Shown: piece by piece, positions 14,521-62,149 of the stretch
How positions within the stretch are numbered: the first letter of the stretch is position 1
Layout: each line of letters opens with the position of its first letter
Virus record (IMG/VR): IMGVR_UViG_3300013232_000486
DNA from: a virus
Lineage: Duplodnaviria; Heunggongvirae; Uroviricota; Caudoviricetes
Strand: one strand, 5' to 3'
Length of the DNA stretch: 64,000 nt
The notes under the pieces: generated by a model
Databases searched by the model: none
What the model was told of the DNA's origin: nothing
Seen by the model: only the letters and a program-made list of their open reading frames with translations
Program-made: the position numbers and the translations under genes

Positions 14521-14522
14521 AA

Positions 14523-16223: not shown

Positions 16224-17831
16224 ATGGCCGTCTTCGGACAGCAAGAATATGGAAGTCCACTAGGAGCGATAGCCCCGAACGTGGTCTTCGATGCCTCTGG
16301 GGCTGGTTATTATGACTATTCTGGCTTCTCTGCTAGGACTGGGGCCTCCGGGTTCTCTGGATTCTCGATGGCTTCCGTATCTCCGTTGTGTCACCAAAAG
16401 CCTGGTATAGAATTGCTCCCGTGGCGTCCGACACTCATCTTCCCGTTGAATTACGAGGTTGTTGTTGGGGTAGTTGACGTGATCTGGCGAGAAGCCATAC
16501 CGCAAGACTCGTGTGGAGACGACGTCACCTACGAAATACAGTACACCAACTCGTTCAGTAGAAACTTTGGATGGAGAACCATCAGCAAGGACATTCCGTC
16601 GGGAACATCGTCCACACCCATAGACTTCTCCAAAATACCGTACTCCGACGATGCTGGGCTAAGGATCAGGGCTAGAGACACAAGCGGGATCTATTCGGAC
16701 TGGTCCTCAAATTTGAAGCCGTTTACTGTAGCCAATCATCCGCCGAATGAGTTGCAGCTTATTTTCCCAGTTTCCGGAAACACGTTCGACGAGATTTTGA
16801 CTGTGATATGGAAAGAGCCTACCGTAGCCGACATAGACGGGCATTCGGTTACTTACACGGTCCAAGTAACCATGGATTACGCTGGCGATACTGGGTGGAT
16901 AACCGTTCCTGGAGGGGAATTCATTCCTCGCGGGATTACCAGCATATCCGTCAGCAGTTTTGAGTTCCCAGAAGGGTATAACTTCGGAGTAAGGGTAATC
17001 CCAGTAGACGAGTTTGGGGCGCAAGGCATTCCAGCGAAAACCGACTTCAAGATAAAACACGCTGGCAACTTCATAATCGACACCGTCCCGCCTGTTGGAA
17101 CGGCTGTAATCAATGACGGATCCACTCTTGTGGCGGATCCAAGAGTAAAGATTGAATTGTACGCCACCGATACCACGACGGGGATTAAGGACGTAAGGTT
17201 CAGGAACGAGGGTGAAGACTGGGGCGACTGGGACAGCTACGTGAACCAGAAGTTCTGGGACTTGTCTGAAGGTGACGGAAGCAAGAGGGTGTTCGTTCAG
17301 TTTAGGGATTGCGCTGGAAACATTAGCGAAGCATGTGATTGCGAAATAATAAGCCGCGTCTTGTGCAGGACGGGCAACGTCACCGACTTGCAGAGGGGTC
17401 CTGAACGCTTGTATGCGTCTTATGACAGAGATGGCAGGATCATTGAGTACGCATATCTACCGATCAACCTGACTGCCACCCCTGTTCCAGTGGTGAATGC
17501 GCTGGCGTTCTATCAAGACGACCTATACGCGGCGGCCTATGACGAAGCGGCAGACCAAACGACGGTATACAGGATGAGGGGAACGCCTTCCACGATAATG
17601 GTCATTTCTGGGAAGATACTCTCCATGACCGAGTATTCCACGGGACTATACGTGGGTATGCTAGGCGGATACATCAAGGACCTGTTTAGCACGACTAGGT
17701 ATCCAGCCGTCGGAGACCCTCCTCTTCCGCCAGTCACCAAGGTCAGGACTGACGGATCGGTCCTGTACGCCACTGCTGGAGAGTATTACGTCACCTACAA
17801 CGATGTCCAGTGGGAGCAGAAGCAAGTATGA
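16224..17831 (+). CDS. putative virion protein: two FN3-like domains, Ig module, partial propeller
   Basis: W..A..D..GD.VTY.(I/V)Q repeats; DTVPPVGTAVINDG..W.L..GDG.K.V.VQFRD.AGN module; SGFSG-rich N-terminus. Confidence 0.7.
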   Translation: MAVFGQQEYGSPLGAIAPNVVFDASGAGYYDYSGFSARTGASGFSGFSMASVSPLCHQKPGIELLPWRPTLIFPLNYEVVVGVVDVIWREAIPQDSCGDDVTYEIQYTNSFSRNFGWRTISKDIPSGTSSTPIDFSKIPYSDDAGLRIRARDTSGIYSDWSSNLKPFTVANHPPNELQLIFPVSGNTFDEILTVIWKEPTVADIDGHSVTYTVQVTMDYAGDTGWITVPGGEFIPRGITSISVSSFEFPEGYNFGVRVIPVDEFGAQGIPAKTDFKIKHAGNFIIDTVPPVGTAVINDGSTLVADPRVKIELYATDTTTGIKDVRFRNEGEDWGDWDSYVNQKFWDLSEGDGSKRVFVQFRDCAGNISEACDCEIISRVLCRTGNVTDLQRGPERLYASYDRDGRIIEYAYLPINLTATPVPVVNALAFYQDDLYAAAYDEAADQTTVYRMRGTPSTIMVISGKILSMTEYSTGLYVGMLGGYIKDLFSTTRYPAVGDPPLPPVTKVRTDGSVLYATAGEYYVTYNDVQWEQKQV

Positions 17832-20317
17832 GCGTGAACTGGACGCAACTTTTGGTTGATGCCACCACCTCCACGACCTCCTGGATGGTTCCAGCGGCGG
17901 AAGAGGTTGTTGCGGTTGCCTCTTTGGGCTCGTATTATGGGCCGCTTCAAAAAGGCATTATGAAGTCAACCGACCTGAATTATGTGGACATCTCGTACCC
18001 GACCACCAAGTCTGCCCCATACTTGTCTGACAGAGGATTCTTCTCAAGCTCAATCTTAGTCGGCTATCACCTGCAAATCATTGAAGGCGACTATAGCCAG
18101 TCTGATTGCAACCAGATTTTGTCAGACGACTCAAAGTCATTGTTTCAGTCCACGGTCTTGGTGTATCGTCGAGCTGGAAGGCCGTTAATGGATCGTGCGC
18201 CAGGAAGTGTGGTTTACGAGGATTCTATCCTCGTGGCCCCTTCCGATGCGTCATTTGACCGACCAGACAAGCTTTTGTCTCAATCCACGCTAAAGATCAG
18301 AGTTGATATCCCCAGTGGCGTTCTCGTGGAAGGAACCAGGTACACGGCTAGAGCGAGATGCATTCTTGCCTTCCCGTTCACCGAGGGGGATGGATACGAG
18401 CCTAGGTGGTTTGTTTACGAGAATGGTGCTCGCCCATATTTTACCAATTGGGGGATCTCGAAGGCATCCGTAAACAGCAAGCCAAGCATCGTAAACTTGA
18501 CTGTGAATGGGCTATCAAATGCTGCGCGACTTCCATCAAAGAGCGGAACGTTGATGGGATTCACGGTAAAGAACCAAGATGGTCCGAAGGCCAGATACAG
18601 AATACAGGTAGGCAGCGTTACGTATGGCCAGTTCATCCCGAGCATGTGGGATTCAAATTGGGTCACCCTGACCGACGGAGTTGGCATCGTCGATGTCTCC
18701 ATCCCATACCAAGGAAGGGGACTGAAAAACGGCATTGCATACTCGTGGAGGGTTCGCGCCAACGACGGGCTATCAGATGGTGAATGGTCGGACATAAAAA
18801 CGTTCTCCATAAATGACCCTGCAAGGATCCGTTCCATAAAGGTGGACGATACAGAAATATTGTTCGGTCACGTTCCGAAGTCTCCAGCCAATGGGGCAGT
18901 CGTGACGTGGACATATTACGACAAGGAGAGCGTTGGTCAGAAGTACTACAAACTCTTCTACAGGCAAGATGATTGGGCCACGGAAAAGGAAATATCTGAT
19001 AAAAGTAGCGTTAGCACAGTTACCCTTCCGTCATTGGACGCTGGCAGGCAAGTATTCTTGAGGCTCGTTGTTTCGGATGGAATTGAAGAAACGACGGCTT
19101 CGGGAAGCTTTGTCGCGAACAGTCCAGCGTCCGTCACAAGGATACTAATTGACGGGGAAGAAAACCCGCTCACCGTGACCAATCTTACTCCGACGCTATC
19201 TTGGGTATACCAAGACATGGATTCAGAGGCGCAAGCTGGCTATCAGCTACAAGTTTCGGATAACCCAGATTTCTCCACGCTGGAATGGGATACTGGACAA
19301 ACCTTGTCTTCGACAAACTTTGTAGTCTATGCTGGAACCGCGCTCGCACACGGAACATACTTCATCAGGATGAGCGTGTACGATGGAGTATCGTGGTCAG
19401 CGTTTTCAGACTCAGTTACCGCCTTCTTTGCGGTGAATAATGCGCCCACGAGTCCAGTGGTGATTCAGCCGACTGCTGGATCATATTCTGGAGCGATCGA
19501 GGTCAGGTGGCTCCCAGCAACCGATATCGACGGGGACGAGTTGACATACCAAATTGAAGTGACGAGCCAGCGCAGCAGCAATCGCGGATGGAGCCTTTTG
19601 GTTGGCCCATTACCATCAACTCAGACTTCGTATTGGATTGGCGCGTCTGACTTGCCGTCTGGAGACGACTATGGGATTAGAGTGATAGCAAGCGACGGCA
19701 TGGCCAATTCAGACCCTGCCCTTGGATCCATATCGCAGAAGTTCTACATCGCAAACCATGCTCCAACTACCCCTGTGTTTGTATCCCCCTTGAGTGGTCA
19801 AACCGTCGTGAAGTCCATGCGCGTGGAATGGATCGAGGCTGACCCAGTTGACATTGACGATGATGTTGTCTACTACATCCTAGAGATTAGCGACGACGCT
19901 AGCAGTTCTTCTCCATCGTGGAAGCATCTTGGCACATTTGGGACTGGAACGACGTCATTTGTTTTCGATACGGATGGATACGACAACGGAACGGACTATC
20001 AGTTCCGCATCACTGCTTACGACGAGCATGGGCTTGTCGGCGACGTGAACACGAGCCCTAAGTTCATCATCAACACCACCCCAACGGCGATTGATGTGGC
20101 ATTCCTAGATGGAACCACTTACCTGACTACTTCTGACGGTAGAATACTACGTGTTAGGAACGCGTCATGGCAAGTTGACGAGGACTGGTCTGGAGAGAGG
20201 TCGTCTAGAACTTTTGATTACTACTCTACCCCCGGAGGAAAGCTTTCGATCGTAGATGGCGAGCTTAGGTTTACCGCTCCAAATGGGCAAACAATGATTT
20301 TGAGGGAGGGACAATAG
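17828..20317 (+). CDS. putative virion protein with FN3/Ig repeats
   Basis: ATGA overlap gives start MSVNW; repeated W.Y.D.D...Q..Y.(L/I).V....WD(S/T)G and N.AP..P...P domains. Confidence 0.72.
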   Translation: MSVNWTQLLVDATTSTTSWMVPAAEEVVAVASLGSYYGPLQKGIMKSTDLNYVDISYPTTKSAPYLSDRGFFSSSILVGYHLQIIEGDYSQSDCNQILSDDSKSLFQSTVLVYRRAGRPLMDRAPGSVVYEDSILVAPSDASFDRPDKLLSQSTLKIRVDIPSGVLVEGTRYTARARCILAFPFTEGDGYEPRWFVYENGARPYFTNWGISKASVNSKPSIVNLTVNGLSNAARLPSKSGTLMGFTVKNQDGPKARYRIQVGSVTYGQFIPSMWDSNWVTLTDGVGIVDVSIPYQGRGLKNGIAYSWRVRANDGLSDGEWSDIKTFSINDPARIRSIKVDDTEILFGHVPKSPANGAVVTWTYYDKESVGQKYYKLFYRQDDWATEKEISDKSSVSTVTLPSLDAGRQVFLRLVVSDGIEETTASGSFVANSPASVTRILIDGEENPLTVTNLTPTLSWVYQDMDSEAQAGYQLQVSDNPDFSTLEWDTGQTLSSTNFVVYAGTALAHGTYFIRMSVYDGVSWSAFSDSVTAFFAVNNAPTSPVVIQPTAGSYSGAIEVRWLPATDIDGDELTYQIEVTSQRSSNRGWSLLVGPLPSTQTSYWIGASDLPSGDDYGIRVIASDGMANSDPALGSISQKFYIANHAPTTPVFVSPLSGQTVVKSMRVEWIEADPVDIDDDVVYYILEISDDASSSSPSWKHLGTFGTGTTSFVFDTDGYDNGTDYQFRITAYDEHGLVGDVNTSPKFIINTTPTAIDVAFLDGTTYLTTSDGRILRVRNASWQVDEDWSGERSSRTFDYYSTPGGKLSIVDGELRFTAPNGQTMILREGQ

Positions 20318-20318
20318 T

Positions 20319-21173
20319 TTGGGTTACTATGCTTATCCCAATGGCGTTGTCAGTCATGCAATAAGCATGATGGCAAGGTCGACGGACTATCCAAACCCAC
20401 CCTTCATGCCATCCGGTCTCTTGATAGAGTGGCGTCTGAATGGAACCGTCGTAAAGACAGGGAACACCAGCATTGAAGCCGACAGGAGCATAAACACCAG
20501 CTCTCTTGGAGACTACAAGTTCAAGCCATGGCATGCCAATCTGCTCGTCGACTTCGTAATATCTGGGACCGAGTTTTCGTCAGCGAACACATTATCGAAC
20601 AACGACCCTACATTCAGTGGGGGACTTGAACAAGACGAATACGGCATAGCTCCACGCAGTCCAAGGATCTACTGGACGTATGACGATGTGGATGGAGACA
20701 GGCAACAATTATTAAGGGTTCTTGTCGGCGCTGGGCCAGGAGGATCGGAATATTACGACTCCGGGTACATCTTTGGAGACCCAGGAGACGCGAATGGTGA
20801 TGGAGTCGTGAACGAGGACGACTACAATTACGTTAGTGCTAGGCTTGGGGCCGTCTATGGAGACGCGAACTACGTATACAAAGCCGACTTCAATAGAGAC
20901 GGGGTCATAAGCGAAGCAGACCTTGACATCGTGACTCTGTTCATGGGATCAGAATATAGCTTGTCTCAGGCCTCCGAAAGTTACACGTTTCAAATACCAG
21001 AAATGGCTGGAGGGATACCAATCTTTTGGTCGATCCAGTCTGGAGACGGAGAGAAGATCAATAATACCGATCCAGATTGGCCCGAGCCGCCAAGGAAGTT
21101 TATTGAAATCACTGGAGCGTCGACGACGAACGAGCCTCCTTTAATCAAAACAGTTCTGATTGACGGGAAATGA
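20319..21173 (+). CDS. FN3-like virion protein with inserted dockerin/EF-hand pair
   Basis: TTG start with GGGAGG SD; GDANGDGVVNEDD...ADFNRDGVISEADL. Confidence 0.72.
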   Translation: MGYYAYPNGVVSHAISMMARSTDYPNPPFMPSGLLIEWRLNGTVVKTGNTSIEADRSINTSSLGDYKFKPWHANLLVDFVISGTEFSSANTLSNNDPTFSGGLEQDEYGIAPRSPRIYWTYDDVDGDRQQLLRVLVGAGPGGSEYYDSGYIFGDPGDANGDGVVNEDDYNYVSARLGAVYGDANYVYKADFNRDGVISEADLDIVTLFMGSEYSLSQASESYTFQIPEMAGGIPIFWSIQSGDGEKINNTDPDWPEPPRKFIEITGASTTNEPPLIKTVLIDGK

Positions 21174-23620
21174 CGATGGTATCAATAGAAAACAAAACCC
21201 CAACCATCACCTGGACATACGACGACAGTAGTATGCAGCCACAACAAGCGTTCAGGGTGATCGTCACGCGAGGCCCAGACAAGGGCGAGGAGATCCTCTG
21301 GGATACTGGAGAGGTAGAGAGCGATCAGACCGAGGTGGTCTATGGCTACGACAACAATGCGAAGCCGCTTCCTTCCCATGAAACGCTGAGGCTGACGATA
21401 CAAGCATTTGACGGACTTGATTGGGGATGTTCCAGCATCAAGGAATTTGAGATTTCTGCGAAACCAGTAATCACTCTGTGTACGGTCGACAACAAGATAA
21501 ACCCGACAAACCTGACGGACACGTCTCCGGTATTCAGGTGGAAGTACGAGGACGTAGATAACGACCCACTGACCGCATACGAGATCAGGGTTAACACAGA
21601 GCAGACGAACTGGGGAGGGGACGGATTTGCCGGAGTTGTTTGGAGTCCTGGCGTACAGTACCTTCCGAACCCACATGAGGCAGAGTTCAACAAGGATGGT
21701 CTCGCCTTCCATGGCTGCTTCTTCCCGAAGACAATGCAGCTTGGAGTTGTTTACTACTATCAGTTACAAGTGTACGACAAGTATTCAAAATCTGTTTGGT
21801 ACACTGGATACTTCAGGCTTAACAACCCACCAACGGTTACAGCGCTTTCTGTCCTTCCAGTCGACCCGAGTAACGGAGACGACATCGAGGCCGTGTACAC
21901 GTTTGTTGACGACGCTGGGGAACAAGAAAGCAGCAAAACGCAGATCAGATGGTACAAAAACTCCCGTGAAGTGTCCTTGTTAAGAAACATGAAAATCGTT
22001 CCAGCAGCCATGACTAAGCCCAACGAGAGCTGGTACTTCACCGTCACTCCGCATGATGGCGTCGAGTATGGAATCACGTACACGTCACCAAGGGTCTCCA
22101 TAACAAACATTCCTCCAAAGGTTACGGCCAGCGGGATCACGCCTAAATTGCCAAAGAGTTCGGACGCCTTGGAGGCGATATTCTATGTGTCCGACTTGGA
22201 CAAGGATGCCATAACCGTATCAATTTCATGGTTCAAGAACGGGATTGAGCAAGCTTCTTTGAGAAACAGCCCAACGGTTCCTGCTGGGTACGGCTCTGTT
22301 GGAGATACGTTCTACTTCCAGATCCAAGCCAATGACGGATACGAAAAGAGCACGGTAGAAAAATCAGAAACTGTTACGATACAAAACTCGTTACCGTCAA
22401 TAAGGTACTTGTTCGTTCAGAATCAGCCGTTGCCGATGGATGTCACCAGTCAGTCTCCTTCGATCTGGTGGAAGTACGATGATCCAGATAGACAAACTCA
22501 AGCGGCATATCAGGTCATCATAGGGTCTACGCCACCAATCGCAGCAAGTTCGGTCAACGTTAGATATGCCCCTAGTTCCGCGAAAACGTCTGGCATCATA
22601 GCCGTTGTAAAAGAGTTGAAGGATGCGACTGGAAACGACATCCTTGACACTGGAGTCGTTTACAGCAAAGACAGCGTGTATTCAAGGTCGCTGGTGGACT
22701 CTCGTCAGTCTATAAGCCTGAGCGCAGCGCAATCCATAAAATACTCTAATTACTACCTAGACAAGGACTTGCAAACAACTATTCTGCAAGCAAACCAACC
22801 AAAGGGAGAGGCCGTATTCACGTTCCAAGGTGAAACAGGAATTTACGAGGTGGCTATAGAATACGTCGGAGAGGCGAACAAGAAGTCAGCCTACCGATTG
22901 CTTGTAGACGGTACTACCATTGACCAGTTCGTATCCGACGGGGTTGCTGGCGTAAAGTCGCGAGCATTCTCTCAGGCAAAAATACAGAAAGGCTCATCGG
23001 TATCCATTGTCGGTAGCCCATCAGACAATAATGGCAGAGCACCGTTCAGAAGGCTGTTATGCTCGCCAGTCCTAAGTTTTGAGTTTTTGGCCAGTCAGAT
23101 GCAGCTTGCCGGATATTCCGATGCTGGTGACGGTACGATTCGTCTTGTTGGATCTAGCGGGTTGGCTCAGCTCAGGTTCCCATACGTGAGCGGGACATAC
23201 GACATAGAGGTCTACTATGTGACTGAGTCTTCTGGATCACCAACCGCCGAGATTCAAGTGAATTCCACGTCCGTGTACTCTTGGACGTTTGAAGAAGGAT
23301 TGCAACGCAGGATCAGAACTGTTCGTGGAGTGGATCTGGATACTGGCAATATCATAAAGCTACTGGCCACGAAGGACGGAAGCTCTTCTGCCAAGATAGA
23401 AAAATTGGTGTTCTTGCCATCAGCAACTGGAGGACTCGCGTCCTTGAGGCCTGGTCGGACGTACTTCGCTTCGGTGAGAGTATCTGATGGAGACGCATGG
23501 AGCGATTGGTACGTCACTAGATTCGTCATGGATGGTTCTGCCTGGTATTCTGACGTGAGCAACGAGCAAGGATGGACGATAGAGTTCTCTGCGAGGCTGA
23601 TGAGAGGGGTTAGTGTGTAA
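21170..23620 (+). CDS. putative virion protein: FN3/Ig repeats and two CBM-like beta-sandwiches
   Basis: ATGA overlap; N.PP...Y.F.D..G..E....I.WYKN Ig repeats; two G.Y.(V/I).(I/V).Y..E modules resembling CBM6/35. Confidence 0.72.
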   Translation: MTMVSIENKTPTITWTYDDSSMQPQQAFRVIVTRGPDKGEEILWDTGEVESDQTEVVYGYDNNAKPLPSHETLRLTIQAFDGLDWGCSSIKEFEISAKPVITLCTVDNKINPTNLTDTSPVFRWKYEDVDNDPLTAYEIRVNTEQTNWGGDGFAGVVWSPGVQYLPNPHEAEFNKDGLAFHGCFFPKTMQLGVVYYYQLQVYDKYSKSVWYTGYFRLNNPPTVTALSVLPVDPSNGDDIEAVYTFVDDAGEQESSKTQIRWYKNSREVSLLRNMKIVPAAMTKPNESWYFTVTPHDGVEYGITYTSPRVSITNIPPKVTASGITPKLPKSSDALEAIFYVSDLDKDAITVSISWFKNGIEQASLRNSPTVPAGYGSVGDTFYFQIQANDGYEKSTVEKSETVTIQNSLPSIRYLFVQNQPLPMDVTSQSPSIWWKYDDPDRQTQAAYQVIIGSTPPIAASSVNVRYAPSSAKTSGIIAVVKELKDATGNDILDTGVVYSKDSVYSRSLVDSRQSISLSAAQSIKYSNYYLDKDLQTTILQANQPKGEAVFTFQGETGIYEVAIEYVGEANKKSAYRLLVDGTTIDQFVSDGVAGVKSRAFSQAKIQKGSSVSIVGSPSDNNGRAPFRRLLCSPVLSFEFLASQMQLAGYSDAGDGTIRLVGSSGLAQLRFPYVSGTYDIEVYYVTESSGSPTAEIQVNSTSVYSWTFEEGLQRRIRTVRGVDLDTGNIIKLLATKDGSSSAKIEKLVFLPSATGGLASLRPGRTYFASVRVSDGDAWSDWYVTRFVMDGSAWYSDVSNEQGWTIEFSARLMRGVSV

Positions 23621-24963
23621 TGGCAAAGAAAACGTATGAAGAACTGGATAGGGAACGAAAGGCCAAGGAAGCGGAGGAAGCTGCCGCCAGGCAGAAGCGT
23701 ATTCAAGAAGCTCAACAAGAGTATAAGGACGCTATAAAGCCACCCGAACCACCAAAGCCGAAGCCACCAAGGTCAAACCCTTTGGAAGATGCCAAGGCGA
23801 GATATGAGGAACAGCGTGCTGCCGCAGAAAAAGCACATAACGATGCCGAAGCCAAGGTTCGAAGCGACCTACAGAAAAAAGCCCTTAACGACGCCGCAAA
23901 AGCATTGGCAGAAATGCAAGCCGAGTTCAACAAGCGCAAAGCATCTGGATGGGTCACCTCCAACGAGGAAACCGAGTTCAATAAAGAACAAGCCGCAAGA
24001 CAGAACGCCTACAATGAAATGCAGCAAGAATTTAAGGACAGTGAGGCAAAAAGGATAGAAGATAAGAAGAAGGCTGCTGGACAAAGCAAAGAACAGCAAG
24101 ACCAAAGAGACAAAGAAGAGCAAAGAAGGAAAGACGAAGAAAAAGCAAAGCGAGACAAAGAGCAAGAAAAGCGAGACGAAGAAAAGAAAGGCTGGGAAGA
24201 CTGGAACGACCAAAACAACAAGAACGGTCAGGCACCAACGAACTATCCCGTCGAACTTGACGCCGAAACTCCAATGGTAGGGGAACTGAACTTCTCGAAG
24301 AACGACCCAGGCGCAGAAGTCAAAGCTACGAAACCAGATTGTAGGCCCCTCGAGGAGACCATCAACAAGAAGATAGCAGAGTTCCAAGAACTTCAATCGA
24401 ATGCGTCTGATCTGTTTGGAAAGATAAGCGGTCTTGTTGATCGTTTTGAGATGGAAAAGAGTAAAGGCAAGAATGCCTTTAAGGTAATGATTCAAGGACT
24501 ACAAGCCATGACAGCATTACAAGAGGCTTGCAAGAAATTGAACAAATGCAACACTCCAGAATTTAGAACCAACCTTGATAGATATGCCAAAGAAGTTGCT
24601 GTAGCCACAGAAACACTCAAAAATTCTACGGCTTTTGTCCAAAAAACATTAGTTACGCTCAAGGAAGACGTCAACAAGATACAGATTATGTACAATACTG
24701 CTGTGGGCTTGGGATCGGACGTCAACCTTAATCTGAGGCCCGCATTCATTAGATGTGAAGCGGGTGACGGAGCTGTGAAGGTAAAGATTACAGAACCAAG
24801 TGGAAGTGAAAGTGGAAGTGGAAGTGAAAGTGGGTCGTCTGGAGATTCTGGAGACTCCGGAGACAAGGGTTCGACAGGCATTACTGGTACGATCACTGGA
24901 TCCGACCAAGCATCTGTATCAGGCGCATCTGGCGCGTCTGGAACCTCTGGGACGATAGCATAG
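23620..24963 (+). CDS. highly charged coiled-coil protein with Ser/Gly-rich tail
   Basis: TAATG coupling; E/K/Q/A-rich helical N-terminal half; SGSESG repeats at the C-terminus. Confidence 0.75.
   Translation: MAKKTYEELDRERKAKEAEEAAARQKRIQEAQQEYKDAIKPPEPPKPKPPRSNPLEDAKARYEEQRAAAEKAHNDAEAKVRSDLQKKALNDAAKALAEMQAEFNKRKASGWVTSNEETEFNKEQAARQNAYNEMQQEFKDSEAKRIEDKKKAAGQSKEQQDQRDKEEQRRKDEEKAKRDKEQEKRDEEKKGWEDWNDQNNKNGQAPTNYPVELDAETPMVGELNFSKNDPGAEVKATKPDCRPLEETINKKIAEFQELQSNASDLFGKISGLVDRFEMEKSKGKNAFKVMIQGLQAMTALQEACKKLNKCNTPEFRTNLDRYAKEVAVATETLKNSTAFVQKTLVTLKEDVNKIQIMYNTAVGLGSDVNLNLRPAFIRCEAGDGAVKVKITEPSGSESGSGSESGSSGDSGDSGDKGSTGITGTITGSDQASVSGASGASGTSGTIA
24799..24834 (+). repeat. 18-bp tandem repeat encoding (SGSESG)2
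   Basis: AGTGGAAGTGAAAGTGGA AGTGGAAGTGAAAGTGGG. Confidence 0.8.
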
Positions 24964-24973
24964 GCGGTTGAAA

Positions 24974-27900
24974 ATGGCAGACATCTATCAACAAAGCGAC
25001 GATTTGCTGGCCATTATGTCAGAAATCTCTGCTTTGGTCAATAAAATGGACGTGGAAGACACCGTCGGGCTTACCGACATACTTTCTCAGTTGTTGAGCA
25101 AAACGCTTGTCGCATCACAGCTATATGCAAATGTCAATTTCAACATATTCAGTTCTCTTCAGTCTGCTAAGGCACTCGTTCAAGATTCTTTCCAAGGAAT
25201 TAGGTTCTATGATGGAACGCGCTTCGGATATCTAAGGATCTGTCCAAGCAAGGTCGAGTTGCTTGTCGGCGAGACGCTCGAGTATGAGTTGGACGGGACG
25301 CTTCCTCATTCGTACCGCATTGCGGCGAAGGGAAATGACGTAAAGCTGTACGTCGACAACGTCCTTGCCATCGATGGAACTGGTAAGTTCATCCAAAAAA
25401 CTGATCACAAACTTCTTGAGTTCGGAGATATTTCTGGGAGGTCTCAGCTTAACGGCTCCGCTTGGAGAAGTTTCAGGTACAACGTAGAAGGCGACAATGT
25501 TCCAGGTAGCGACACGAACATGGTCACCGAAGAGGTCTTATCGGTTCCTGGTGGGGCGTTTGGCAGTGCCGCATCGTACGGGGACGCTCTGTACGCGGCC
25601 TTCAATCCAGACGATGACTCATCGTCATCGTCAATCTACAGGTACAAGGAAGGCTCCACGCCAGAAATAGTTCCAGCCAGATCAATCACGAAGTCTGGAG
25701 TGAACTCGGTAAAGATTGACCCTAACAAGCAATCAGATATTTTCGGTACCTCTGGAAAGTTCATCGCCACAGATTACGGTCTGCAATACGTACTTGGCAG
25801 CAAGCTATCTGATCTTCCGATCGAAGCCGACATGTTCTCTCCTCCAGAAGACGAGGGTTGGGTTGTTTTGGCGAACTGTGAAGGTACCTGCCACAACCTC
25901 AATGGCGGTATCCTTACGATCGACACTAGAAATGAAAGCGACGTAGTCTACTACGATTATCGTGATCATCCTGCTGGAGACTGGGTTTACGCGGCTGATA
26001 ACCAAAACGGATGGACTATCGAAACCGTTGTTCGCATAGCGGATGATGGAACATCTGGAATACCAAGTACTCATGACGATGCCTATTTTGAGGCTCTTGC
26101 GGCGACGGAAGGTAAGGACGTTGTCGTGGCTGTTGAGCGCTCGTCAATCATGCAGCCAAACGAGAAGAGAAATGCGGTTCAAGTAGTTTCATACATACTA
26201 AGGCAGTTGAACCGATGGGACAAGTTCAACGTGGTTCTTTACGGCCAGTTCGACAATAGATATCCAAACGGATCGCCAGTAATAAGTAACTTGTGCGAGT
26301 CTTTCACCAGCGATTTTGTCCTGGCCAGCGGGCAGAACATAGACTTGGCCATAGACTTTTTGAAGACAATAGATTCGGACACGGACTTCGGATTGTACCC
26401 AGACGTCAGGGCCGCTACCGAGAAGTCGCTCAACATGACGTATTCTAGTCCGAACAAGTTCATGGTTATTGTCGGGACTGGATTCTCGTACATCGGACCT
26501 TTCCCTCCGCCGAACGCCTCGTACAATTACGGAACCCAGCCCACTGACCTGACGTCGCTGAGTTACAATGTGATCCCAGCAGCGATAGGACACAGCGTCG
26601 TAAAAGATACCAACGACCAGAACACGTCAAGCTACGATGCGAAAATCATAACCGTAGGACTTGGAGAGTTCCTCGATTCTCCGTCATTGGTTCTTCCAAG
26701 TGACATCGGATACTCAACCGCAGAAACGTATCAAGATATGTGGTCTGCGCTTGCATCCGATAGCGGTGGAAATACGTACAGAATCAAGTCAGTAGACGAT
26801 CCAGATGTGGTTGCAAAATCAATCGTTGTCTTCATGGATCCAAACTCGGCTGACGACACGTCACCAGCGTCTGCGTTTACGCCACTTCAAGCAATGGTAG
26901 CTGCTGGTGATGGATGCGACCCAAAGATTGATAGGGCGATGGGAAACGAGCCTCCATCTGATGGGATCACTTGTCCTGGAATCGTAATTAATGACGGCAC
27001 GTACCAAGAAGTAGTCCAATTGTTCCAGCGTGGCATCAGGCTTAAGTACGCCAAATTGTTCGCCTCGTTGGATCTTTCAAACAAGTACTACAGACTCAGA
27101 ATAGTCGGGCGCAAGCAAGCCATTGCCGTTTACGCAAAGGCTGAGGGAGAAAAAGACTGGGAGAGAATCTTGTTCTCCCCGTATGGATTGTACGTCAAGT
27201 CGCAACAAGTCAGTGACGTCGACAAGCCAATGGTCATCATCGATGCATTTGGCGTTAAGCATGCCGTATGGCAAGAAACGGAGAATGGAGTTTGGGGCAT
27301 TTACTATGCCAGAACCAACCCAGAAACCGTTTTGTGTTCTGGCGTTGCTAATGATCCACAAAGCGATTATCTCAAGGACATCATAGCAAACAGAATCGCT
27401 TTCGGGCTTAGCGCTGTCGGATCGTTCGATCCAGCGAGACTTGATGGATCAATTGTTTCTGGTACTGGTAAATTCCTGTCCTCTGGAGTAAAAGAGGGCG
27501 ATCTCATATCATTGTATAACTTTATGAGGGCTGACGGAGTAAGGCTTGATAAGCCCCCAGTAACATACTCGGTAAAGTCAGTTTCGGACGATGTCGTTCT
27601 TGTCCCTGATACCAGCAGCGCCATAAACTCGTCCGACGAAGAAACGAGATGGAATACCGCAGAGTACGTCGTCCATAGAGGCAGCTTTAAGTTCGGAACA
27701 AAGGTAAAAGTCTCCACTCAGACCCTTGACAGTACTAGCCCATATGTTTTCGCTCACTCGTCTGGTGACATATATGTGGCGTACGACAACATTGAAAAGG
27801 GTTCGGCTGACATATACATCAGACGGGCAACGGCCAGTCCCACGTCAACTGCATGGAAAGAAACGCTGCGCCTAACTCGCGGATCTGGGCAAAGTCATGC

Positions 27901-30900
27901 CCCATCATTGGCTGAGGTTTCGGATGGAAAGTTTTTCGCCGTCTGGGAAGAGAGCAGTTCTGACGGATCCAGGTCAGAGGTGTTTTATGCTCTCATAGAA
28001 CCAAACACGTTTACCGACAAAGTACCTCTGATGGTCTTGGATCAGTCTTCCATAAGGGCTAGGAACCCGAAGGTTATATCCGCAGCAATAGACGCTGATG
28101 ACCAAGAAAAGCGTGACGCGGTAATTTTCTGGGAAGACGACTTCGGAGGACAAAACGGAAAGATATACGCCGCGAAAATATCTGGATCCGATGGGCTGAT
28201 ACTGTACCCGACCACTGCCTTGGTCACGACGGACGACAACAGGTCTCCGTCAGTTTCCATAAAAACAGATGACTATGTATGGCTGACATGGAGAAAGGTT
28301 GTTGGCGGTAAGGGGCAAATATGGGCTGCCAAGGTTAATTTCGCCAATCTGTACATTAGTGATGTGAGTCTCGTCGCGATTACAGTCGGGAATTGCTCAA
28401 GTCCTTCAATCTCACAAGATTCAAACGAGAACGTCTACATTTGCTATGCCGATGATCGATTCAGGAGCGGTAGAACTGATATATTTGTTTCAACATACCA
28501 AGAGACTCCAGTGGATGCGGCAACCGAGCCAGAACCAAGGCCTCCTGCGTCTTGTCCGCCACCTCCAACTCCACCAGAACCGCCAGATCCACCAGAACCA
28601 CCAGATCCACCGACGCCACCAGTACCTCATGGGTTGAATGCCAAGTACTTCAGTGGCGTCACACTCAAAACCCTTGTTTTGGAGAGAATTGATCCAGTCG
28701 TCAACTTCTGGTGGGCATCCACGATGCCTTGGCCAGCCAGAAGAAGGGGAGCCTTTAGCGCCAGGTGGACGGGACAAGTACAAGCCCAATATACCGAAGC
28801 GTACACGTTCTCTACGGTCACGGATGATGGAGCCAGGCTGTGGATTAATGGACAGCTTATTCAAAACCATTGGTGGAAACATGGTCCCGTAGAAGTCCGC
28901 TCCAAGCCAATGAACTTGGTGGCTGGCCAAAAGTATGATATCGTGCTTGAGTTCTTCGAGAATGGAAGAGGAAGGGCTGCAACACAGCTATTCTGGAAGA
29001 GTCCTTCCACGCCAAAACAAATCATTCCAACAGAAGCCTTGTATGCAGTCGCTCCAGTAGGAACTCCAGTACCTGAAACTCCGCCCGCGCCAGAACCAGA
29101 GGTTCCGGCCCCAGCGATTCCAGAGCCACAAGCTGGCCCAGTTCCTAACGAACTGGCTTTGCCAACAACGGGTCAGTGGGTCAGTAGCGCTCAGTTCGGC
29201 ATGGATATCAGACTCATGCCTAGGGATAATCATGACTCATTTGATGTCCCAAGCATCGTAGCAGAGTCTGGTTTGGACAAACCAAGATTCTTCGTAGTGT
29301 GTCGGGCATCAAATACTGGCTCAGACACGGCAATTCTTGGTACCTGCATCGACATAGATCCAGGACAGGGAAATCCGCCCATTGTGGCAATTCTGACTTG
29401 CGAAGACAACACCGCGTCCCAGTCGGTGACGAACCTTGTTCACTTCCTTGACAGCACAACGTACAACTCGTATGCGTCCGTCAATACCGATTTGCTACAT
29501 GGAACGGACACTGATCACGGATTCTATGACATAGATAAGGGAACGAAGTCATTCTTCAGGATCAAGACAGAACACGTTGCGTTCCCAAGGATAGTTCCGT
29601 TTTCTGGCTGCGTAGACTTGTGGTTCAAACCACAATGGTCTTCATCGGACGCAACCCCTAGGCACCTGTTCGGTAACGCCAGATATGACAGTACGGATGC
29701 GAATTCGTTTTCAATAGCGTACGTACCGAATGGACTACAGTTCAAGATCATTGACTCTTGCGGCTTCGTCAGGTCAACCACCATAAACTCGTCAGAGTTC
29801 TCGTGGTTGGCGGACGAGCCGATCAGACTTCGCGCAAAGTGGATCCCAACCGCGACTGGAATGTCAAGAATTAACAGCATTTGCTTCAAAGATTCAAGTA
29901 ACGGGATCGCGTGTGGCGCGGAAGGAGCCATTTTCAAGACGACCGATGGTGGTGTGACATGGGCAAAGGTCAATACCTATCTAACCTATGACTTCTTCTC
30001 CGTTGACTATTTGAATACGGGAATGGCTTTCGTCAGTGGTGAAATGGGGACGATACTCGTTTCATCAGACGATGGCGCAACTTGGACAGTCGTCGACACT
30101 GGCATCGAGCATGACTTAAAGTCGATATACTATGACTTGTCTGGCGCCAAGGCTTGGACTGTATCTGCGAATGGAGAGGTTCTTAGCTCTACTGATTTCG
30201 TGACATGGACAGTCGCTTGGACGGCTCCGACTGGATTGCTCACGGTGACCGTGATGTCGGATCCACTAGGACGAGCGATTCTGGTCGGAGGAATGAACGG
30301 AAAGATATACAAGAGTACGAACGGTACCACGTTCTCCTCGTCGACCGTCCCCGTACAGTCTACGACGCTAAGCATCTCGTCGATAAGCAAGGAGCATTAT
30401 AGCTCTGGATATACCACATTCGCATGCGGCGATGGAGGATTGATTCTAAGATCCGATGATTCAGGAGATACGTGGACGCAAGTTCACATCAAGTACGAAG
30501 ACCTGGAGCCAGCCCTATATTCAATTTCTAGAGTTGATGATGGATTCGATACGTGGTTTGCTGTTGGGTCAGATGGTACCATGATCGGCGGCGTTGGGTC
30601 TACTGGATCAGTATGCAGCACGGCATTGATCAATGGTGCGTTCATGACCATTGACGCGCAGTTTGGAGCAGCGCCTGGAACAAAGGTGATCGCTGGTGGA
30701 AGTGGAAGCTCATATTTCATTTCTGACGATTCTGGGGTATCTCAAACATACTATACGATAAGTTCAAAGAACTTGACGCTCACCATAAATGGAAGAGAGT
30801 ACAATCAGACCCGCGTCGGGGATAGTACGTTCGATTGGGATCCAGCCTTCAGGCTTTGGTATGTCGGAGACACTGCTGCGTCTGCCACTGACAGCGACTT

Positions 30901-33900
30901 CAAGCTTTACCAATTGACAGTTTGCGCAGAACCCGTCCTGAACGAAAGGGCCTTCTTGAGAAAAGAGACGTGGACGATCCCTGCCTACAAGGGCATGGAC
31001 AAGACGATAGCTTCTGGATACATGCCTTTGTCTGTGGTAGGAAAGCGCCTTGAATGGGGAAGCCTCACCTCAAAGTCACGGTCACACTGGAAGTACTTCG
31101 GAGCCTATCCTTGTTCCTCAAAGGTTCCTCAAAAGTTCTACTGCTGGACGACACAACTAGGCCTTGCTGGAGAAATCGTAAACGACTTGGCTACTGACAA
31201 GCTTGGCAGGCTCTTTGTCGCCACTGGTAATGGCATGTCCGTGATGAACACGTCCGAGATAAGCAGTGACATCGAAAGATGGGAAATGCGCCTCGGAATG
31301 CCATACAACAGCAAGTCCAGGCTCGTGAACGTAACGAATCTTCTATACGGGCTACCAGAAGGGAAGATAAGCTCGGTAACCGTAGACGAAAATCAAGACG
31401 TATGGTTTGGTACTCCTAGCGGACTTTGCCTTCTTCCAATAGGATCCATATCTGAAACCCAGAATGACGAAACCGATCCTCTTGACGCGATTATCGCTGA
31501 ATATCAGAAGAGACTTACTGGACAAGCATCTGGAGTAACCAGTCAACAGACCACCACTGAAAACGAGAGCATACGCAAGTACGATAAGGTAACCGTAATC
31601 ACCACTGGGAACGGGTTGTCGTCTGATAACGTGCTCGCCGTCAAGGCAATTGGAAACAAGGTTTTCGTTGCGACCGACATGGGATTATGCGTCATAACGA
31701 AGGCAGCCACCGTAAAGACCACTGTGACGACGCAAGTCACGTCAACTGTTGATTCAAACGGAACAGCCGTCACAACTGGAACAACGACCGAGAAAAACGC
31801 TTCTACTGGAACGACGACAGAAACCACTACTAAAATAGCTGGAACTACCGATACTACCGAAATGGCCGATACCGCAACCGATGGTACCGAAACGACTGGT
31901 CCCGTCACTACCGATGCCACAAATACGAAAGTGAACTCGTCAACCAGTACGGGAACGGCGAAACAGTCTCAAGTCGACACGACCTTGAACTACACCATCA
32001 AGAGGTATGGCATTGAAAGCGGTCTACCATCGAACAGGATCCAGGCGATCGGCTATAACAAAAACACCGAAGAACTATGGGTAGGAACTGATTATGGATG
32101 CGCCAGAGCGCAGATAACGGACGACAAAATCGTCTTCTCTCAGTTGGTGACAGTGGCCAATACCATGTCCGTTACCCCGTGGCTTGACGGCATTCTCCTT
32201 GGTACTAACTTTGGATTGTTGTACTTTGATAATTCATTGCGTGAAACGCAAATCGGGTCTGACGTAGTTGGCCTGAGTCCGATCGTGTGTGGCGACGTTG
32301 ATGCGTCAAACGTCGCATGGCTTGGGTCATCACTTGGGCTCGTGGAACTAAACAACGACTGTGGACTAAAGTCGGGGTCGATAACTTCAAACCAAGATGG
32401 CTTGTTAGGGTTTGAAACGCTAATCGACTTCAAGTACTACAGACTTGTGTCCTCGTCCCTTCCAGGTGGGGGATGTGAGAAAGCGCTCATCTTCCCTCAG
32501 ATAAACGGAAAGAGGGTTACTAGCGGATACAAGGTAATTCCACAAGTTCCGATGATCGAGTTTGATACCCCTCTACGGTCAACCGATCAGGTAGAGGCCT
32601 TCGTTCACAGAGGCTTCAGAAGGCTGCCTTCGCTCATAAACACTGAAATATATCCATTTGCTTACTTGGAAACAGACAAGCTGAGAATGAACCTGTATCG
32701 CAAGCGTGTCTTGGCTGGTACGGTTAAGGTTGGCGGAAACAGAGGCCCAGGGTCTCGTGGTACACCGAGAATGTATACGGTGATTGCGCAGCCAGTTGAC
32801 CCATCTGGCGCACCACTTGAAGACAATTGGCCGATCACGGCTGTAAGCGGGCCAGCAACGGTGACGTTCAAGCGTCCTGTCGAGGAAGGACAAAGCATAT
32901 ATTGTGACACGTCAGAACTCATTCAGACCGTACCGACAGACGCGTATGACGCACAGATCGTGTCGTTCCCATCGACGGATGAAGAGGGAAATCTTGACGA
33001 GTATGCGACTCTGACGGTGGCTGTCGACTCCGTAATCTATGTCGCCTACGACTCAAAAGCTCTTGATATCCCGTCATGGCTAAGGTCATTCGACCCTGTT
33101 TCTACAGTCCAGCGCGTCACAGACATGGAGGTCTACACCGCGCCTGGATCAGTGGAAAAACTGTATGCGGCCACAAGAGGATCCAACGGATGCATTTATA
33201 GCGTCTTGCAAGACGAGTCCGCTTGTGACATCATGGCCGAGACGGCAATGGACAACTCTGGGCCAGATGGATGCATAACGAACGCGGTCATGACTGGAAC
33301 AGACAGAATGCGTTTGAACTTGACTGCAAACGACTTGATCAGTGGAGTGGCAGACATGAGGGTGTCTGCCCGAGAGGACTTCAAGGACGATAATGGCAAT
33401 GACTTGCCATGGGTTCCTTTCGCTGGGACGTATGAAATACAAGTTCCAATCACGCAAAGTACCTCCGCGACAGTCGTTTCCACGATAACCACTGGTACCT
33501 ACACGAACTTTTACACATGGAACGGCCAGTCACTGGCCACGGCCTCTGATACTGGACGCGTTTACAAGATAATTCCTGGAGCGGATCCAGAACTTCTATT
33601 TGACACTGGACAACCAGACATCACGTCGCTTGTTAGTTTTGGCAAATACTTGGTCGTTGGAACTGGTCCAAACGGGCTTATCTACACGTGGGACGGAACA
33701 GCACTCAAGCCTCTCACCGTTCCTAACGCGACTAGAATCACGGCGATGACGCCATTCGATAGTCTCCTGTTCTTGGGCGTGACGTACGTGGACAACAACG
33801 GGCTTCCAACCGCTTACGTATACACAATCAGTGAGGTCGATCTTGACCTGGGCAACTTCCCAACGCTGTTCAAGTCAACGCTTGAAACTGACATCACTGG

Positions 33901-35758
33901 GTTCGCGATCTTCGGCGGCATGCTATATTGGTCTTCATCGAACGAGCGCATCCACGCCGAGGGGTCTGAGGTGGTCGAGGACTTTGTCACCTTGTCCACC
34001 ACGACGACTCGTGGGCATAAGCATTCGTTCAGCGTTCCCGCCGGGGTCAAGTTGATGTACGACTTGAACGGATACACGACAGAAGTTGACGGTCATTCCC
34101 ACCAGGTTATCAACGGCGTTGTCCAGGCCGCTGATAGCCATTCCCATGTACTAAATGGCGTGATGTCCGGGAAGGTCTTCAGGCTTGATTCCGTAACTGG
34201 AAATGTGATCATCGTCCATGCCGACCGAGACTACAAGGTCACGACGATATCTTCGTCTTCGCTAGACGATCAAGGACTGATGTTCGTTGGCACATACCCG
34301 AATGGCAAGATTCTAAGGTACGTTCCTACAGAAGAGATATTCTCGAGGTCATTCGATACCCCAGCGGACAGCGTCAACAAACTCAAGTACCTTGAGGGCA
34401 AGACGTATGCCGTCGCGGGGAACGACTTCTTCGTCTTCAACGGGTTCAGATGGGAGTTCTTGGGATCTACTGGCGGAGCAGAAATCATAGACATACTCGC
34501 TAATCCAAGCGAGGTGTTCCTGCTCACGTCAACGTCGGTATACTCGGTAACCACAACGACCGTCACCACCACGACCACAACAACACAACAGCCAGCATGG
34601 AAGGCGTGCGCCTACGTTACCTTCAGAGACAATCTTGGCAACGAAAGCGACAGATATGACTCAGACGGGGCGTTGAAGAGTTGCTACTACGTATGCGCTA
34701 CAGACCAAGGTTTCAGCGGAGCGTCTGGGTTTAGTGGCTCCAGCGGCGGCGGTGGTGGTGGAGGCGGTGGAACTGACGGAGGCGGAACGAACGGGGCCGT
34801 ACAGATCGTCCATCGCATAACAGAAGTCAACGAAAACGCGTTGTCAGTCATGTCCATAGTCGGGCCGAAGGCGTTCTTCTCGGCCAACCTAGTCCAGAAT
34901 GAAATCGGAGTATACGAGTCCGAGATCTTCAACGGGACGACTTCGTTCGTTCAATGGGTGTCGATATCTTGGGATTCGACTGTTCCGATGGGAACCAGCC
35001 TTGACATCCAAGTCAGGAGCGCCTCGACGTTCGCGGCTGTTTCTTCGGCCACGTGGTCAGACCTCATGACGACTCCAAGCGGTGGGACGAGGCCGGAGTA
35101 CGATATCACCAATCAGCGTGGCCAGTTCATGCAGTTCAAGGCAACGCTGAAATGCACCACGGCTGGAGTGACGTCACCAGAGCTTCAGGCCGTGTTTATC
35201 AAGCTGAGGACGTCGCAAGCCGTTCACTACTACACTACCAACTTCGCCTTGCCGCAAGCGCTTAAGAGCGGCATCCTGACGTACAATGGATGCAAGTATC
35301 CTCCTACGACTGACCTCGTTTTCGGTATCAATGCGCAGGATTCAACCGACTTCTCGGACTATCAAGTAATAGAGCCGAACAAGGTCTTTGAGGCGCTCCC
35401 AGAACACCAGATGAAGAACTTGCGCGTCGGTATCAAGCTGATCTCCGACACGACAACCGTACCAGTGGTGGACGAATTCGCCTTGTTGTTCAGCCTGGCT
35501 AACGACGCGATCATAAGGCTGAACCTGCCTGGAATGCCAGTAGACGGAGGAAGCTCAATCGTCACACAAGGGCAGACAAAGAGCGTACTGACGGACGTCG
35601 CCCAAGGACATGCACATACGGTGACCTACGATGCGTACCTCGACGCCAAAGATCAGGTCAATGGCCAGACCTCGATCAACGCTGGCCACAGTCATAAGAT
35701 TGTGAGCGGCGTAATTCAACCCGCTGCTGGCCACAGCCACGACTTCACATTCGAGTAA
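24974..35758 (+). CDS. ~3594-aa giant virion protein: LamG-like sandwiches, degenerate vWA, propellers, PA14, BNR/Ycf48 repeats, Thr-rich linker, HxH motifs
   Basis: PA14 (GLNAKYF..FSARWTG..TDDGARLWING, ~28630-29045) between Pro-rich linkers; S/T-x-D-x-G-x-TW BNR repeats (~29870-30760); two GH.H clusters; ATG 24974 with AGGCGG SD. Confidence 0.8.
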   Translation: MADIYQQSDDLLAIMSEISALVNKMDVEDTVGLTDILSQLLSKTLVASQLYANVNFNIFSSLQSAKALVQDSFQGIRFYDGTRFGYLRICPSKVELLVGETLEYELDGTLPHSYRIAAKGNDVKLYVDNVLAIDGTGKFIQKTDHKLLEFGDISGRSQLNGSAWRSFRYNVEGDNVPGSDTNMVTEEVLSVPGGAFGSAASYGDALYAAFNPDDDSSSSSIYRYKEGSTPEIVPARSITKSGVNSVKIDPNKQSDIFGTSGKFIATDYGLQYVLGSKLSDLPIEADMFSPPEDEGWVVLANCEGTCHNLNGGILTIDTRNESDVVYYDYRDHPAGDWVYAADNQNGWTIETVVRIADDGTSGIPSTHDDAYFEALAATEGKDVVVAVERSSIMQPNEKRNAVQVVSYILRQLNRWDKFNVVLYGQFDNRYPNGSPVISNLCESFTSDFVLASGQNIDLAIDFLKTIDSDTDFGLYPDVRAATEKSLNMTYSSPNKFMVIVGTGFSYIGPFPPPNASYNYGTQPTDLTSLSYNVIPAAIGHSVVKDTNDQNTSSYDAKIITVGLGEFLDSPSLVLPSDIGYSTAETYQDMWSALASDSGGNTYRIKSVDDPDVVAKSIVVFMDPNSADDTSPASAFTPLQAMVAAGDGCDPKIDRAMGNEPPSDGITCPGIVINDGTYQEVVQLFQRGIRLKYAKLFASLDLSNKYYRLRIVGRKQAIAVYAKAEGEKDWERILFSPYGLYVKSQQVSDVDKPMVIIDAFGVKHAVWQETENGVWGIYYARTNPETVLCSGVANDPQSDYLKDIIANRIAFGLSAVGSFDPARLDGSIVSGTGKFLSSGVKEGDLISLYNFMRADGVRLDKPPVTYSVKSVSDDVVLVPDTSSAINSSDEETRWNTAEYVVHRGSFKFGTKVKVSTQTLDSTSPYVFAHSSGDIYVAYDNIEKGSADIYIRRATASPTSTAWKETLRLTRGSGQSHAPSLAEVSDGKFFAVWEESSSDGSRSEVFYALIEPNTFTDKVPLMVLDQSSIRARNPKVISAAIDADDQEKRDAVIFWEDDFGGQNGKIYAAKISGSDGLILYPTTALVTTDDNRSPSVSIKTDDYVWLTWRKVVGGKGQIWAAKVNFANLYISDVSLVAITVGNCSSPSISQDSNENVYICYADDRFRSGRTDIFVSTYQETPVDAATEPEPRPPASCPPPPTPPEPPDPPEPPDPPTPPVPHGLNAKYFSGVTLKTLVLERIDPVVNFWWASTMPWPARRRGAFSARWTGQVQAQYTEAYTFSTVTDDGARLWINGQLIQNHWWKHGPVEVRSKPMNLVAGQKYDIVLEFFENGRGRAATQLFWKSPSTPKQIIPTEALYAVAPVGTPVPETPPAPEPEVPAPAIPEPQAGPVPNELALPTTGQWVSSAQFGMDIRLMPRDNHDSFDVPSIVAESGLDKPRFFVVCRASNTGSDTAILGTCIDIDPGQGNPPIVAILTCEDNTASQSVTNLVHFLDSTTYNSYASVNTDLLHGTDTDHGFYDIDKGTKSFFRIKTEHVAFPRIVPFSGCVDLWFKPQWSSSDATPRHLFGNARYDSTDANSFSIAYVPNGLQFKIIDSCGFVRSTTINSSEFSWLADEPIRLRAKWIPTATGMSRINSICFKDSSNGIACGAEGAIFKTTDGGVTWAKVNTYLTYDFFSVDYLNTGMAFVSGEMGTILVSSDDGATWTVVDTGIEHDLKSIYYDLSGAKAWTVSANGEVLSSTDFVTWTVAWTAPTGLLTVTVMSDPLGRAILVGGMNGKIYKSTNGTTFSSSTVPVQSTTLSISSISKEHYSSGYTTFACGDGGLILRSDDSGDTWTQVHIKYEDLEPALYSISRVDDGFDTWFAVGSDGTMIGGVGSTGSVCSTALINGAFMTIDAQFGAAPGTKVIAGGSGSSYFISDDSGVSQTYYTISSKNLTLTINGREYNQTRVGDSTFDWDPAFRLWYVGDTAASATDSDFKLYQLTVCAEPVLNERAFLRKETWTIPAYKGMDKTIASGYMPLSVVGKRLEWGSLTSKSRSHWKYFGAYPCSSKVPQKFYCWTTQLGLAGEIVNDLATDKLGRLFVATGNGMSVMNTSEISSDIERWEMRLGMPYNSKSRLVNVTNLLYGLPEGKISSVTVDENQDVWFGTPSGLCLLPIGSISETQNDETDPLDAIIAEYQKRLTGQASGVTSQQTTTENESIRKYDKVTVITTGNGLSSDNVLAVKAIGNKVFVATDMGLCVITKAATVKTTVTTQVTSTVDSNGTAVTTGTTTEKNASTGTTTETTTKIAGTTDTTEMADTATDGTETTGPVTTDATNTKVNSSTSTGTAKQSQVDTTLNYTIKRYGIESGLPSNRIQAIGYNKNTEELWVGTDYGCARAQITDDKIVFSQLVTVANTMSVTPWLDGILLGTNFGLLYFDNSLRETQIGSDVVGLSPIVCGDVDASNVAWLGSSLGLVELNNDCGLKSGSITSNQDGLLGFETLIDFKYYRLVSSSLPGGGCEKALIFPQINGKRVTSGYKVIPQVPMIEFDTPLRSTDQVEAFVHRGFRRLPSLINTEIYPFAYLETDKLRMNLYRKRVLAGTVKVGGNRGPGSRGTPRMYTVIAQPVDPSGAPLEDNWPITAVSGPATVTFKRPVEEGQSIYCDTSELIQTVPTDAYDAQIVSFPSTDEEGNLDEYATLTVAVDSVIYVAYDSKALDIPSWLRSFDPVSTVQRVTDMEVYTAPGSVEKLYAATRGSNGCIYSVLQDESACDIMAETAMDNSGPDGCITNAVMTGTDRMRLNLTANDLISGVADMRVSAREDFKDDNGNDLPWVPFAGTYEIQVPITQSTSATVVSTITTGTYTNFYTWNGQSLATASDTGRVYKIIPGADPELLFDTGQPDITSLVSFGKYLVVGTGPNGLIYTWDGTALKPLTVPNATRITAMTPFDSLLFLGVTYVDNNGLPTAYVYTISEVDLDLGNFPTLFKSTLETDITGFAIFGGMLYWSSSNERIHAEGSEVVEDFVTLSTTTTRGHKHSFSVPAGVKLMYDLNGYTTEVDGHSHQVINGVVQAADSHSHVLNGVMSGKVFRLDSVTGNVIIVHADRDYKVTTISSSSLDDQGLMFVGTYPNGKILRYVPTEEIFSRSFDTPADSVNKLKYLEGKTYAVAGNDFFVFNGFRWEFLGSTGGAEIIDILANPSEVFLLTSTSVYSVTTTTVTTTTTTTQQPAWKACAYVTFRDNLGNESDRYDSDGALKSCYYVCATDQGFSGASGFSGSSGGGGGGGGGTDGGGTNGAVQIVHRITEVNENALSVMSIVGPKAFFSANLVQNEIGVYESEIFNGTTSFVQWVSISWDSTVPMGTSLDIQVRSASTFAAVSSATWSDLMTTPSGGTRPEYDITNQRGQFMQFKATLKCTTAGVTSPELQAVFIKLRTSQAVHYYTTNFALPQALKSGILTYNGCKYPPTTDLVFGINAQDSTDFSDYQVIEPNKVFEALPEHQMKNLRVGIKLISDTTTVPVVDEFALLFSLANDAIIRLNLPGMPVDGGSSIVTQGQTKSVLTDVAQGHAHTVTYDAYLDAKDQVNGQTSINAGHSHKIVSGVIQPAAGHSHDFTFE

Positions 35759-62135: not shown

Positions 62136-62149
62136 GCAGGGGACTTGAA

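Follow-up and report, generated by a model that had tools for sequence, protein, structure and literature searches.

The window analysed here is a stretch of 64,000 nucleotides (nt) from the Caudoviricetes virus record IMGVR_UViG_3300013232_000486. It carries five consecutive genes, which we named C to G, and a jelly-roll domain whose parts lie on separate genes (Table 1). This split domain, termed copy 1, has piece 2 at the end of E, piece 3 near the start of G and probably piece 1 at the end of C, and G itself contains an internal second version of the domain, termed copy 2. The initial annotation of the window had proposed that a single beta-sandwich domain is spread over these three open reading frames (ORFs) in the same order as in the internal copy. 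All 12 motifs on which it relied are present at the positions given, and C, E and G do lie in frame 2, with the intervening D in frame 3 and F in frame 1.

Table 1. Genes and domain parts at the locus, with positions in the window
Feature	Position	Strand	Description
Gene C	17828..20317	+	829 aa; Ig/FnIII domains, a single propeller-like blade and a conserved tail at the end
Piece 1 (probable), C tail	20168..20314	+	49 aa; the likely source of copy 1's N-terminal strands
Gene D	20319..21173	+	284 aa; TTG start; Ig-like domain with a dockerin insert
Gene E	21170..23620	+	816 aa; tandem Ig/FnIII-like domains; piece 2 at the C-terminal end
Piece 2	23528..23599	+	Short helix and a single strand of copy 1 (GWTIE), 6 residues ahead of the E stop
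Gene F	23620..24963	+	447 aa; charged, helical, with a Ser/Gly-rich end; sits within the cut loop
Gene G	24974..35758	+	3594 aa; nested multidomain protein
Piece 3	25184..25495	+	The other nine predicted strands of copy 1, from the fused-domain mapping and a modelled fused relative
Copy 2, N-terminal strands and GWTIE strand	25811..26047	+	From the N-part profile score of near-clade copy 2 segments
vWA-like insert in copy 2	26048..26977	+	Same loop as the copy 1 cut; weak Pfam VWA_3 match, E 0.027
Copy 2, middle strands	26978..27196	+	From the fused-domain mapping
Copy 2, last two strands	31043..31117	+	Beyond an insert of about 1280 aa

Pieces 2 and 3 in relatives of E and G

Because the likeness between the two copies within the window is weak by BLASTP (E 0.6 and E 0.003), relatives were needed for comparison. 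A query with residues 420-816 of E (397 aa) retrieved 9 non-self homologues at 37-81% identity, all nine of which terminate shortly past the GWTIE strand. Scans with the alignment of E homologues gave 58 loci, or 51 after the removal of seven duplicates (L005, L010, L029, L030, L036, L047 and L058); two distant small-phage matches, L001 and L002, stand outside these counts. In 45 of the 58 loci (40 of the 51 non-redundant ones) the strand continues directly into the rest of the domain in a single ORF, and the search for relatives with fused ORFs that the initial annotation had suggested was thus rewarded for E and G. The domain is cut in the other 13 loci (11 non-redundant), where the ORF stops 7-29 residues past the motif. 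On the fused domain, the E tails cover columns 1-29 (98.6%) and the G heads columns 35-139 (99.8%), lying end to end with no overlap. A single jelly-roll domain, encoded without a break in most relatives, runs from the end of E on into the start of G. The two parts show the colinearity with an unbroken protein in relatives that is expected of a gene-fission pair, and the C-terminal peptide of E corresponds to strands absent from the partner G head, as a joint of the BppU-BppA type, discussed below, requires. No relative was found in annotated phage records, in a single-protein viral scan or in genome contigs. L001 contains at 9677-11386 a seemingly intact small version of the domain, inserted in a small-phage tail protein.

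Three proteins that are 59-65% identical to piece 3 (P0015, P0016 and P0017) have the parts fused via an Ala/Thr-rich linker at the same loop. In a tree of 58 rows, they lie inside the clade of the window (support 100/98), which comprises 16 split and 3 fused rows, with 10 protein-only rows in the tree called split from the protein start alone. The conservation of piece 2 was assessed on 10 split-only E sequences, a set that, unlike the L loci, had not been selected by motif. Across this set the 24 residues of piece 2 reached a mean majority of 0.76 compared with 0.64 for the E body, ranking 20th of 691 sequence windows (97th percentile), and the value dropped to 0.23 over the six residues that follow. 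Just 9 residues precede piece 3 in G of L013, and 21 in L012; the own N-terminus of G therefore cannot provide the strand.

The fused form of copy 1 matched copy 2 at 98.9% (E 1e-17) and the G head alone did so at 84.6% (E 7e-6). Near-clade copy 2 segments scored a median of about 19 bits on a profile of the N-terminal part (N-part) of intact domains. The C-terminal piece of copy 2 at 31043 was the best match in G of a profile derived from unrelated intact domains, but at 5.2 bits; the homologous stretch was the best match in 29 of 41 sequences, 10 giving no match and 2 matching elsewhere.

When a fused relative was modelled with AlphaFold2 (AF2), ten strands and a short helix were predicted with high confidence by the predicted local distance difference test (pLDDT), the strand of E being the first; from LamG topology, this strand presumably lies within a sheet. 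Residues 1-145 of the model matched the lectin domain of the Vibrio cholerae sialidase (CBM40, 2w68_A) with Z 11.5, a root-mean-square deviation of 2.8 and 132 aligned residues, tied with whole galectins (5nld_A 5-138, Z 11.3). As these are the best structural matches, the fold modelled for copy 1 is a concanavalin-like jelly roll (LamG/CBM40/CBM66-like). The Bacillus subtilis CBM66 (4b1m/4azz) shares this fold in the same range (Z 10-11.5 across the three groups) and also gave a weak sequence match (E 0.04). However, CBM40, CBM66 and the galectins are single chains at 14-17% identity, and sugar binding by the phage domain is only putative. The family scan of the window proteins gave no Pfam Laminin_G_3-type match in G. 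Intact relatives match LamG3, GH16 or 3keto-disac_hyd, several of them close to or under the cut-off, and the ESM Atlas placed the G head in LamG-named clusters at 0.90, which we regard as a lead only.

The tail of gene C

C was a separate upstream gene in all 44 non-redundant loci where it was seen, and its conserved tail is retained whether FnIII/Ig domains precede it, as in near relatives, or a whole LamG domain, as in distant relatives. The tail contains an invariant Trp, whose spacing to a GxL motif is 32 (interquartile range 31-33) in C tails versus 33 (32-35) in intact domains; the Gly two residues before the Leu occurs in 32 of 45 C tails and in 45 of 54 intact domains. The N-part profile was derived from 63 intact domains of 39 unrelated proteins, 26 of 89 'intact' domains having been excluded as operon-family or uncertain. 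On this profile, C tails had a median of 1.4 bits (3.8 for the window), compared with -1.2 for other gene ends, -1.2 for reversed tails and 19.4 for copy 2. The C tail family ranked first of 142 windows for N-part likeness, although these windows overlap one another and the 45 C tails are a single family. The alignment of the fused-relative model to 2w68_A starts at residue 76 of the 195-residue chain, with about 50 N-terminal residues uncovered. For the tail of a distant C, AF2 gave a pLDDT of 43-71 as opposed to mostly 83-96 in the core, that is, no confident fold in its own chain. On balance, we lean towards the view that the C tail provides the approximately 50 N-terminal residues of copy 1.

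Several results weigh against this view or narrow the evidence for the joint as a whole. No C-E fusion was found among 55 C homologues (proteins up to 2000 aa) or in the 44 loci. The C tail gave no significant profile match to the N-terminal strands (hhalign probability below 9%), and hidden Markov model and hhalign comparisons with copy 2 gave nothing significant, the true window ranking 4th of 140 at best; an ESM Atlas search with the tail returned no usable match. AF2 placed short helices in the middle of the tail of a distant C, and left the N-strands of copy 2 poorly modelled in the fused relative. The final C codons, often ATA AGG in distant loci, double as a Shine-Dalgarno (SD)-like site of the next gene, which may account for the terminal Ile-Arg. 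For the E strand, GWTIE served as search pattern for the L loci, so its invariance there is biased and was not counted. The initial proposal that one domain runs over three ORFs therefore stood for pieces 2 and 3, which map onto the fused domain and are homologous to copy 2, but the match of the C tail to the internal copy was not borne out by profile comparison, and the support for piece 1 is circumstantial.

Since E and G together cover whole galectins equally well, the domain may also be complete without C. The joint would then have two pieces only, E and G forming a galectin-sized ten-strand sandwich, and the C tail would bind something else in the appendage. The absent profile match and the predicted helices fit this possibility, as does the position of the tail after an orphan propeller-like blade, with which it may travel. 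On the other hand, every well-aligned intact relative of the family has an N-part with the same Trp-to-GxL spacing, the C tail family is the top-ranked one noted above, and copy 2 possesses these strands and is itself cut there in another clade. We thus consider a two-piece joint rather unlikely. A link of distant C proteins to toxins was also considered and rejected: a fold search matched nothing beyond generic jelly rolls across about 250 columns. Receptor-binding parts of clostridial neurotoxins were among these, which reflects a shared fold.

Cut loops and proposed reassembly of the domain

The vWA-like insert of the window's copy 2 occupies the loop where copy 1 is cut, and it is missing in P0003, L011 and L013. 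In another clade (17 rows, support 100/99), E and G are fused and copy 2 is cut past its N-terminal strands, close to where the C/E cut of copy 1 would lie; other relatives have an insert there. This second cut is seen at L060 11896-11912 and in 16 further non-redundant loci, with 300-1000 extra residues before the domain resumes in L031, L032 and L035. The D|E boundary, an ATGA overlap (window 21129-21250), splits an Ig_Rha78A_N-like domain past its first strand: the last 14 residues of D are the first strand of the Ig domain that continues in E. D and E form a single ORF in L004, L008, L009, L011 and L012 and are cut in the window, in L003 and in close proteins. Most split loci have an F gene, but the F proteins are unrelated in sequence, without mutual similarity save for L004/L006 among those compared, and F is absent in L008, L012 and L013. 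From the patterns of copy 1, copy 2 and D|E, the cuts fall in insert-tolerating loops, a pattern that would be allowed if folded parts reassemble. The fused relatives, the second cut in copy 2 and the Ig cut at 21170 had been overlooked by the initial annotation.

As most relatives carry pieces 2 and 3 as one unbroken protein, the separate proteins likely rebuild the domain by locking together. Our preferred reading, with a probability of about 0.65, is that a lectin-type jelly roll is divided among separate genes and likely rebuilt by strand complementation of separately translated proteins. Stop/start pairs would have cut the insert-tolerating loops of the jelly roll, amounting to gene fission at surface loops. 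Judging from sequence, the conserved strand of E very probably docks into the incomplete sandwich of G, and the C tail would add the N-terminal strands to give a three-protein joint. F, apparently dispensable, likely derived from the expanded cut loop or moved into it. From the gene context in a relative, the joint may connect subunits of a tail-tip or fibre appendage rich in adhesion-type domains. Complementation in trans, already proposed in the initial annotation, has three lines of support for pieces 2 and 3, namely the fused relatives, the end-to-end mapping and the conservation; for piece 1 it is plausible. It is an even call whether, more broadly, one jelly roll from three translated proteins forms the hub of a nested many-protein appendage in undescribed phages of 400-550 kb, with the fold cut independently at three loops. 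When the three window pieces were predicted as a complex, the C tail being the partner, the score was 0.06 versus a mark of 0.32; as the controls were unfolded, it was counted neither way.

The pieces could instead be joined into one chain by RNA splicing, ribosomal bypassing or readthrough, the first two of which had been raised at the outset on account of the shared frame. C, E and G are all in one frame in 3 of 6 loci (the window, L008 and L009), E and G in 4 of 7, and the E-G gap is as short as 3 nt in L008 and 12 nt in L012. The shared frame is present in the sequence but is coincidental, as the C/E offsets are distributed 10 (shared), 20 and 15 among 45 loci. The distance from piece 2 to piece 3 varies from 137 to 1635 nt, and splicing would remove 1100 conserved D and E codons. 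The genes meet at coupled stop/start junctions, and of 40 E starts, 26 have an SD-like 4-mer ahead of them, compared with a background of 13% (a count that omits the window, L003, L012, L013 and L021). An Rfam scan of the window found a tmRNA only and no intron family, and the family scan found no intein family in D, E, F or G. We read C to G as ordinary coupled cistrons, and joining into one chain is a remote prospect. Promoter and terminator counts were no different from those of shuffles. A frameshift at C|D and D|E was dropped from consideration, as D starts with Met at the same position in relatives, four of which retain the D|E cut.

A crosswise pairing, in which the N-part and strand of copy 2 complete the G head in cis and the C and E tails complete copy 2 in trans, draws on the fact that residues 282-360 of G, about 100 residues downstream, contain the full set of parts missing from piece 3. 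It is highly unlikely in view of the fused relatives, where the strands directly adjoin the copies to which they belong; moreover, AF2 folds the copies separately, and the E tails retain copy-1-type sequence. We give very little weight to the notion that the E strand is what fission left behind, with no binding role, and that the G head works as a truncated fold, because the strand is conserved at the 97th percentile across split-only homologues of 37-81% identity and the residues behind it drift. Finally, some junctions cut domains, and L003 has a stop inside E (11056-11234), where P0008 has Trp, that is likely an assembly error. We nevertheless attach next to no credence to all breaks being assembly errors within one giant gene: in independent assemblies from several sources, the ends are the same for all 9 E homologues and all 55 C homologues, the latter ending at most 10 residues from the tail match.

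Known joints and the phage setting

In the baseplate of Lactococcus phage Tuc2009, a C-terminal hairpin of BppU, about 25 residues long, completes a beta-sheet of BppA, a joint through which carbohydrate-binding modules are attached (PMC4742702). The phage genes studied here are predicted to work alike, a C-terminal extension of one structural protein completing the domain of its partner. The Tuc2009 joint is Ig/titin-like, made of two proteins and known from a solved structure (PMC4742702), whereas ours is a jelly roll, probably made of three proteins. Its pieces are separated by entire genes, fused forms of it are recorded, and the loop that is cut differs between clades. If true, a three-chain jelly roll would exceed the two-chain case. 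Jumbo phages possess split enzymes, namely RNA polymerase subunits and a minimal DNA polymerase III alpha, and concanavalin-fold domains occur in their virions (PMC7824862). In both cases one module resides on separate polypeptides that reassemble, as predicted here, but those enzymes are divided at the subdomain level (PMC7824862) and the cuts described here fall between strands of a small structural domain. No account of this system was found in the open-licence literature searched.

Among the relatives the same fold occurs intact, expanded by a linker, cut, or cut with an entire gene lying in the gap, which makes a natural series. The tolerance of intradomain gene fission, and its turn into a protein joint, thereby become testable. 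The 24-residue E peptide and its 104-residue acceptor are a candidate natural peptide-catcher pair, and giant phage proteins of this kind cannot be annotated or folded gene by gene. In chaperone-usher pili, a strand of one chain likewise fills the gap in the beta-sandwich of another, with an N-terminal donor, an Ig fold, a chaperone and an usher, and a repeating polymer as product. Here, by contrast, the fold is a jelly roll, the donors are C-terminal and the joints are one-off; no chaperone or usher family was found among 24 scanned window proteins.

We infer the phage origin and virion location of the window proteins from relatives. Two of these, G001 and G002, are 488 and 499 kb long with terminal repeats and tail genes. 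In G002 the operon lies downstream of a head-tail adaptor, a tail protein and a 2081-aa tape-measure-like ORF (assigned by position and sequence), and its neighbours match central tail fibre families; sheath and Terminase_6N were not found in G001-G005. A protein identical to one of the window lies on a 250-kb contig, and the window likely belongs to a jumbo (giant-genome, over 200 kb) phage.

Within C (20084-20167) and near the start of G (25530-25810) there are lone propeller-like blades, well away from the propeller regions of G (Reg_prop and others), and propellers, too, may be assembled from chains that are distant or separate. G has repeated His-x-His motifs (33950-34170 and 35600-35758), which match phrog_15223 and are possible metal sites. 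Beside the structural operon are several glycosyltransferases (52249-53673, 55011-60536 and 1866-3053), and these may glycosylate the virion; one of them has 1841 aa and contains both GT1 and GT2 domains. The tmRNA gene lies at 133-502 (Rfam RF00023, ARAGORN) and a tRNA nucleotidyltransferase-like gene at 62099-63856. Three neighbouring genes at 12251-15392 have paralogous N-termini (M-x-Y-F-P) that cross-match in relatives.

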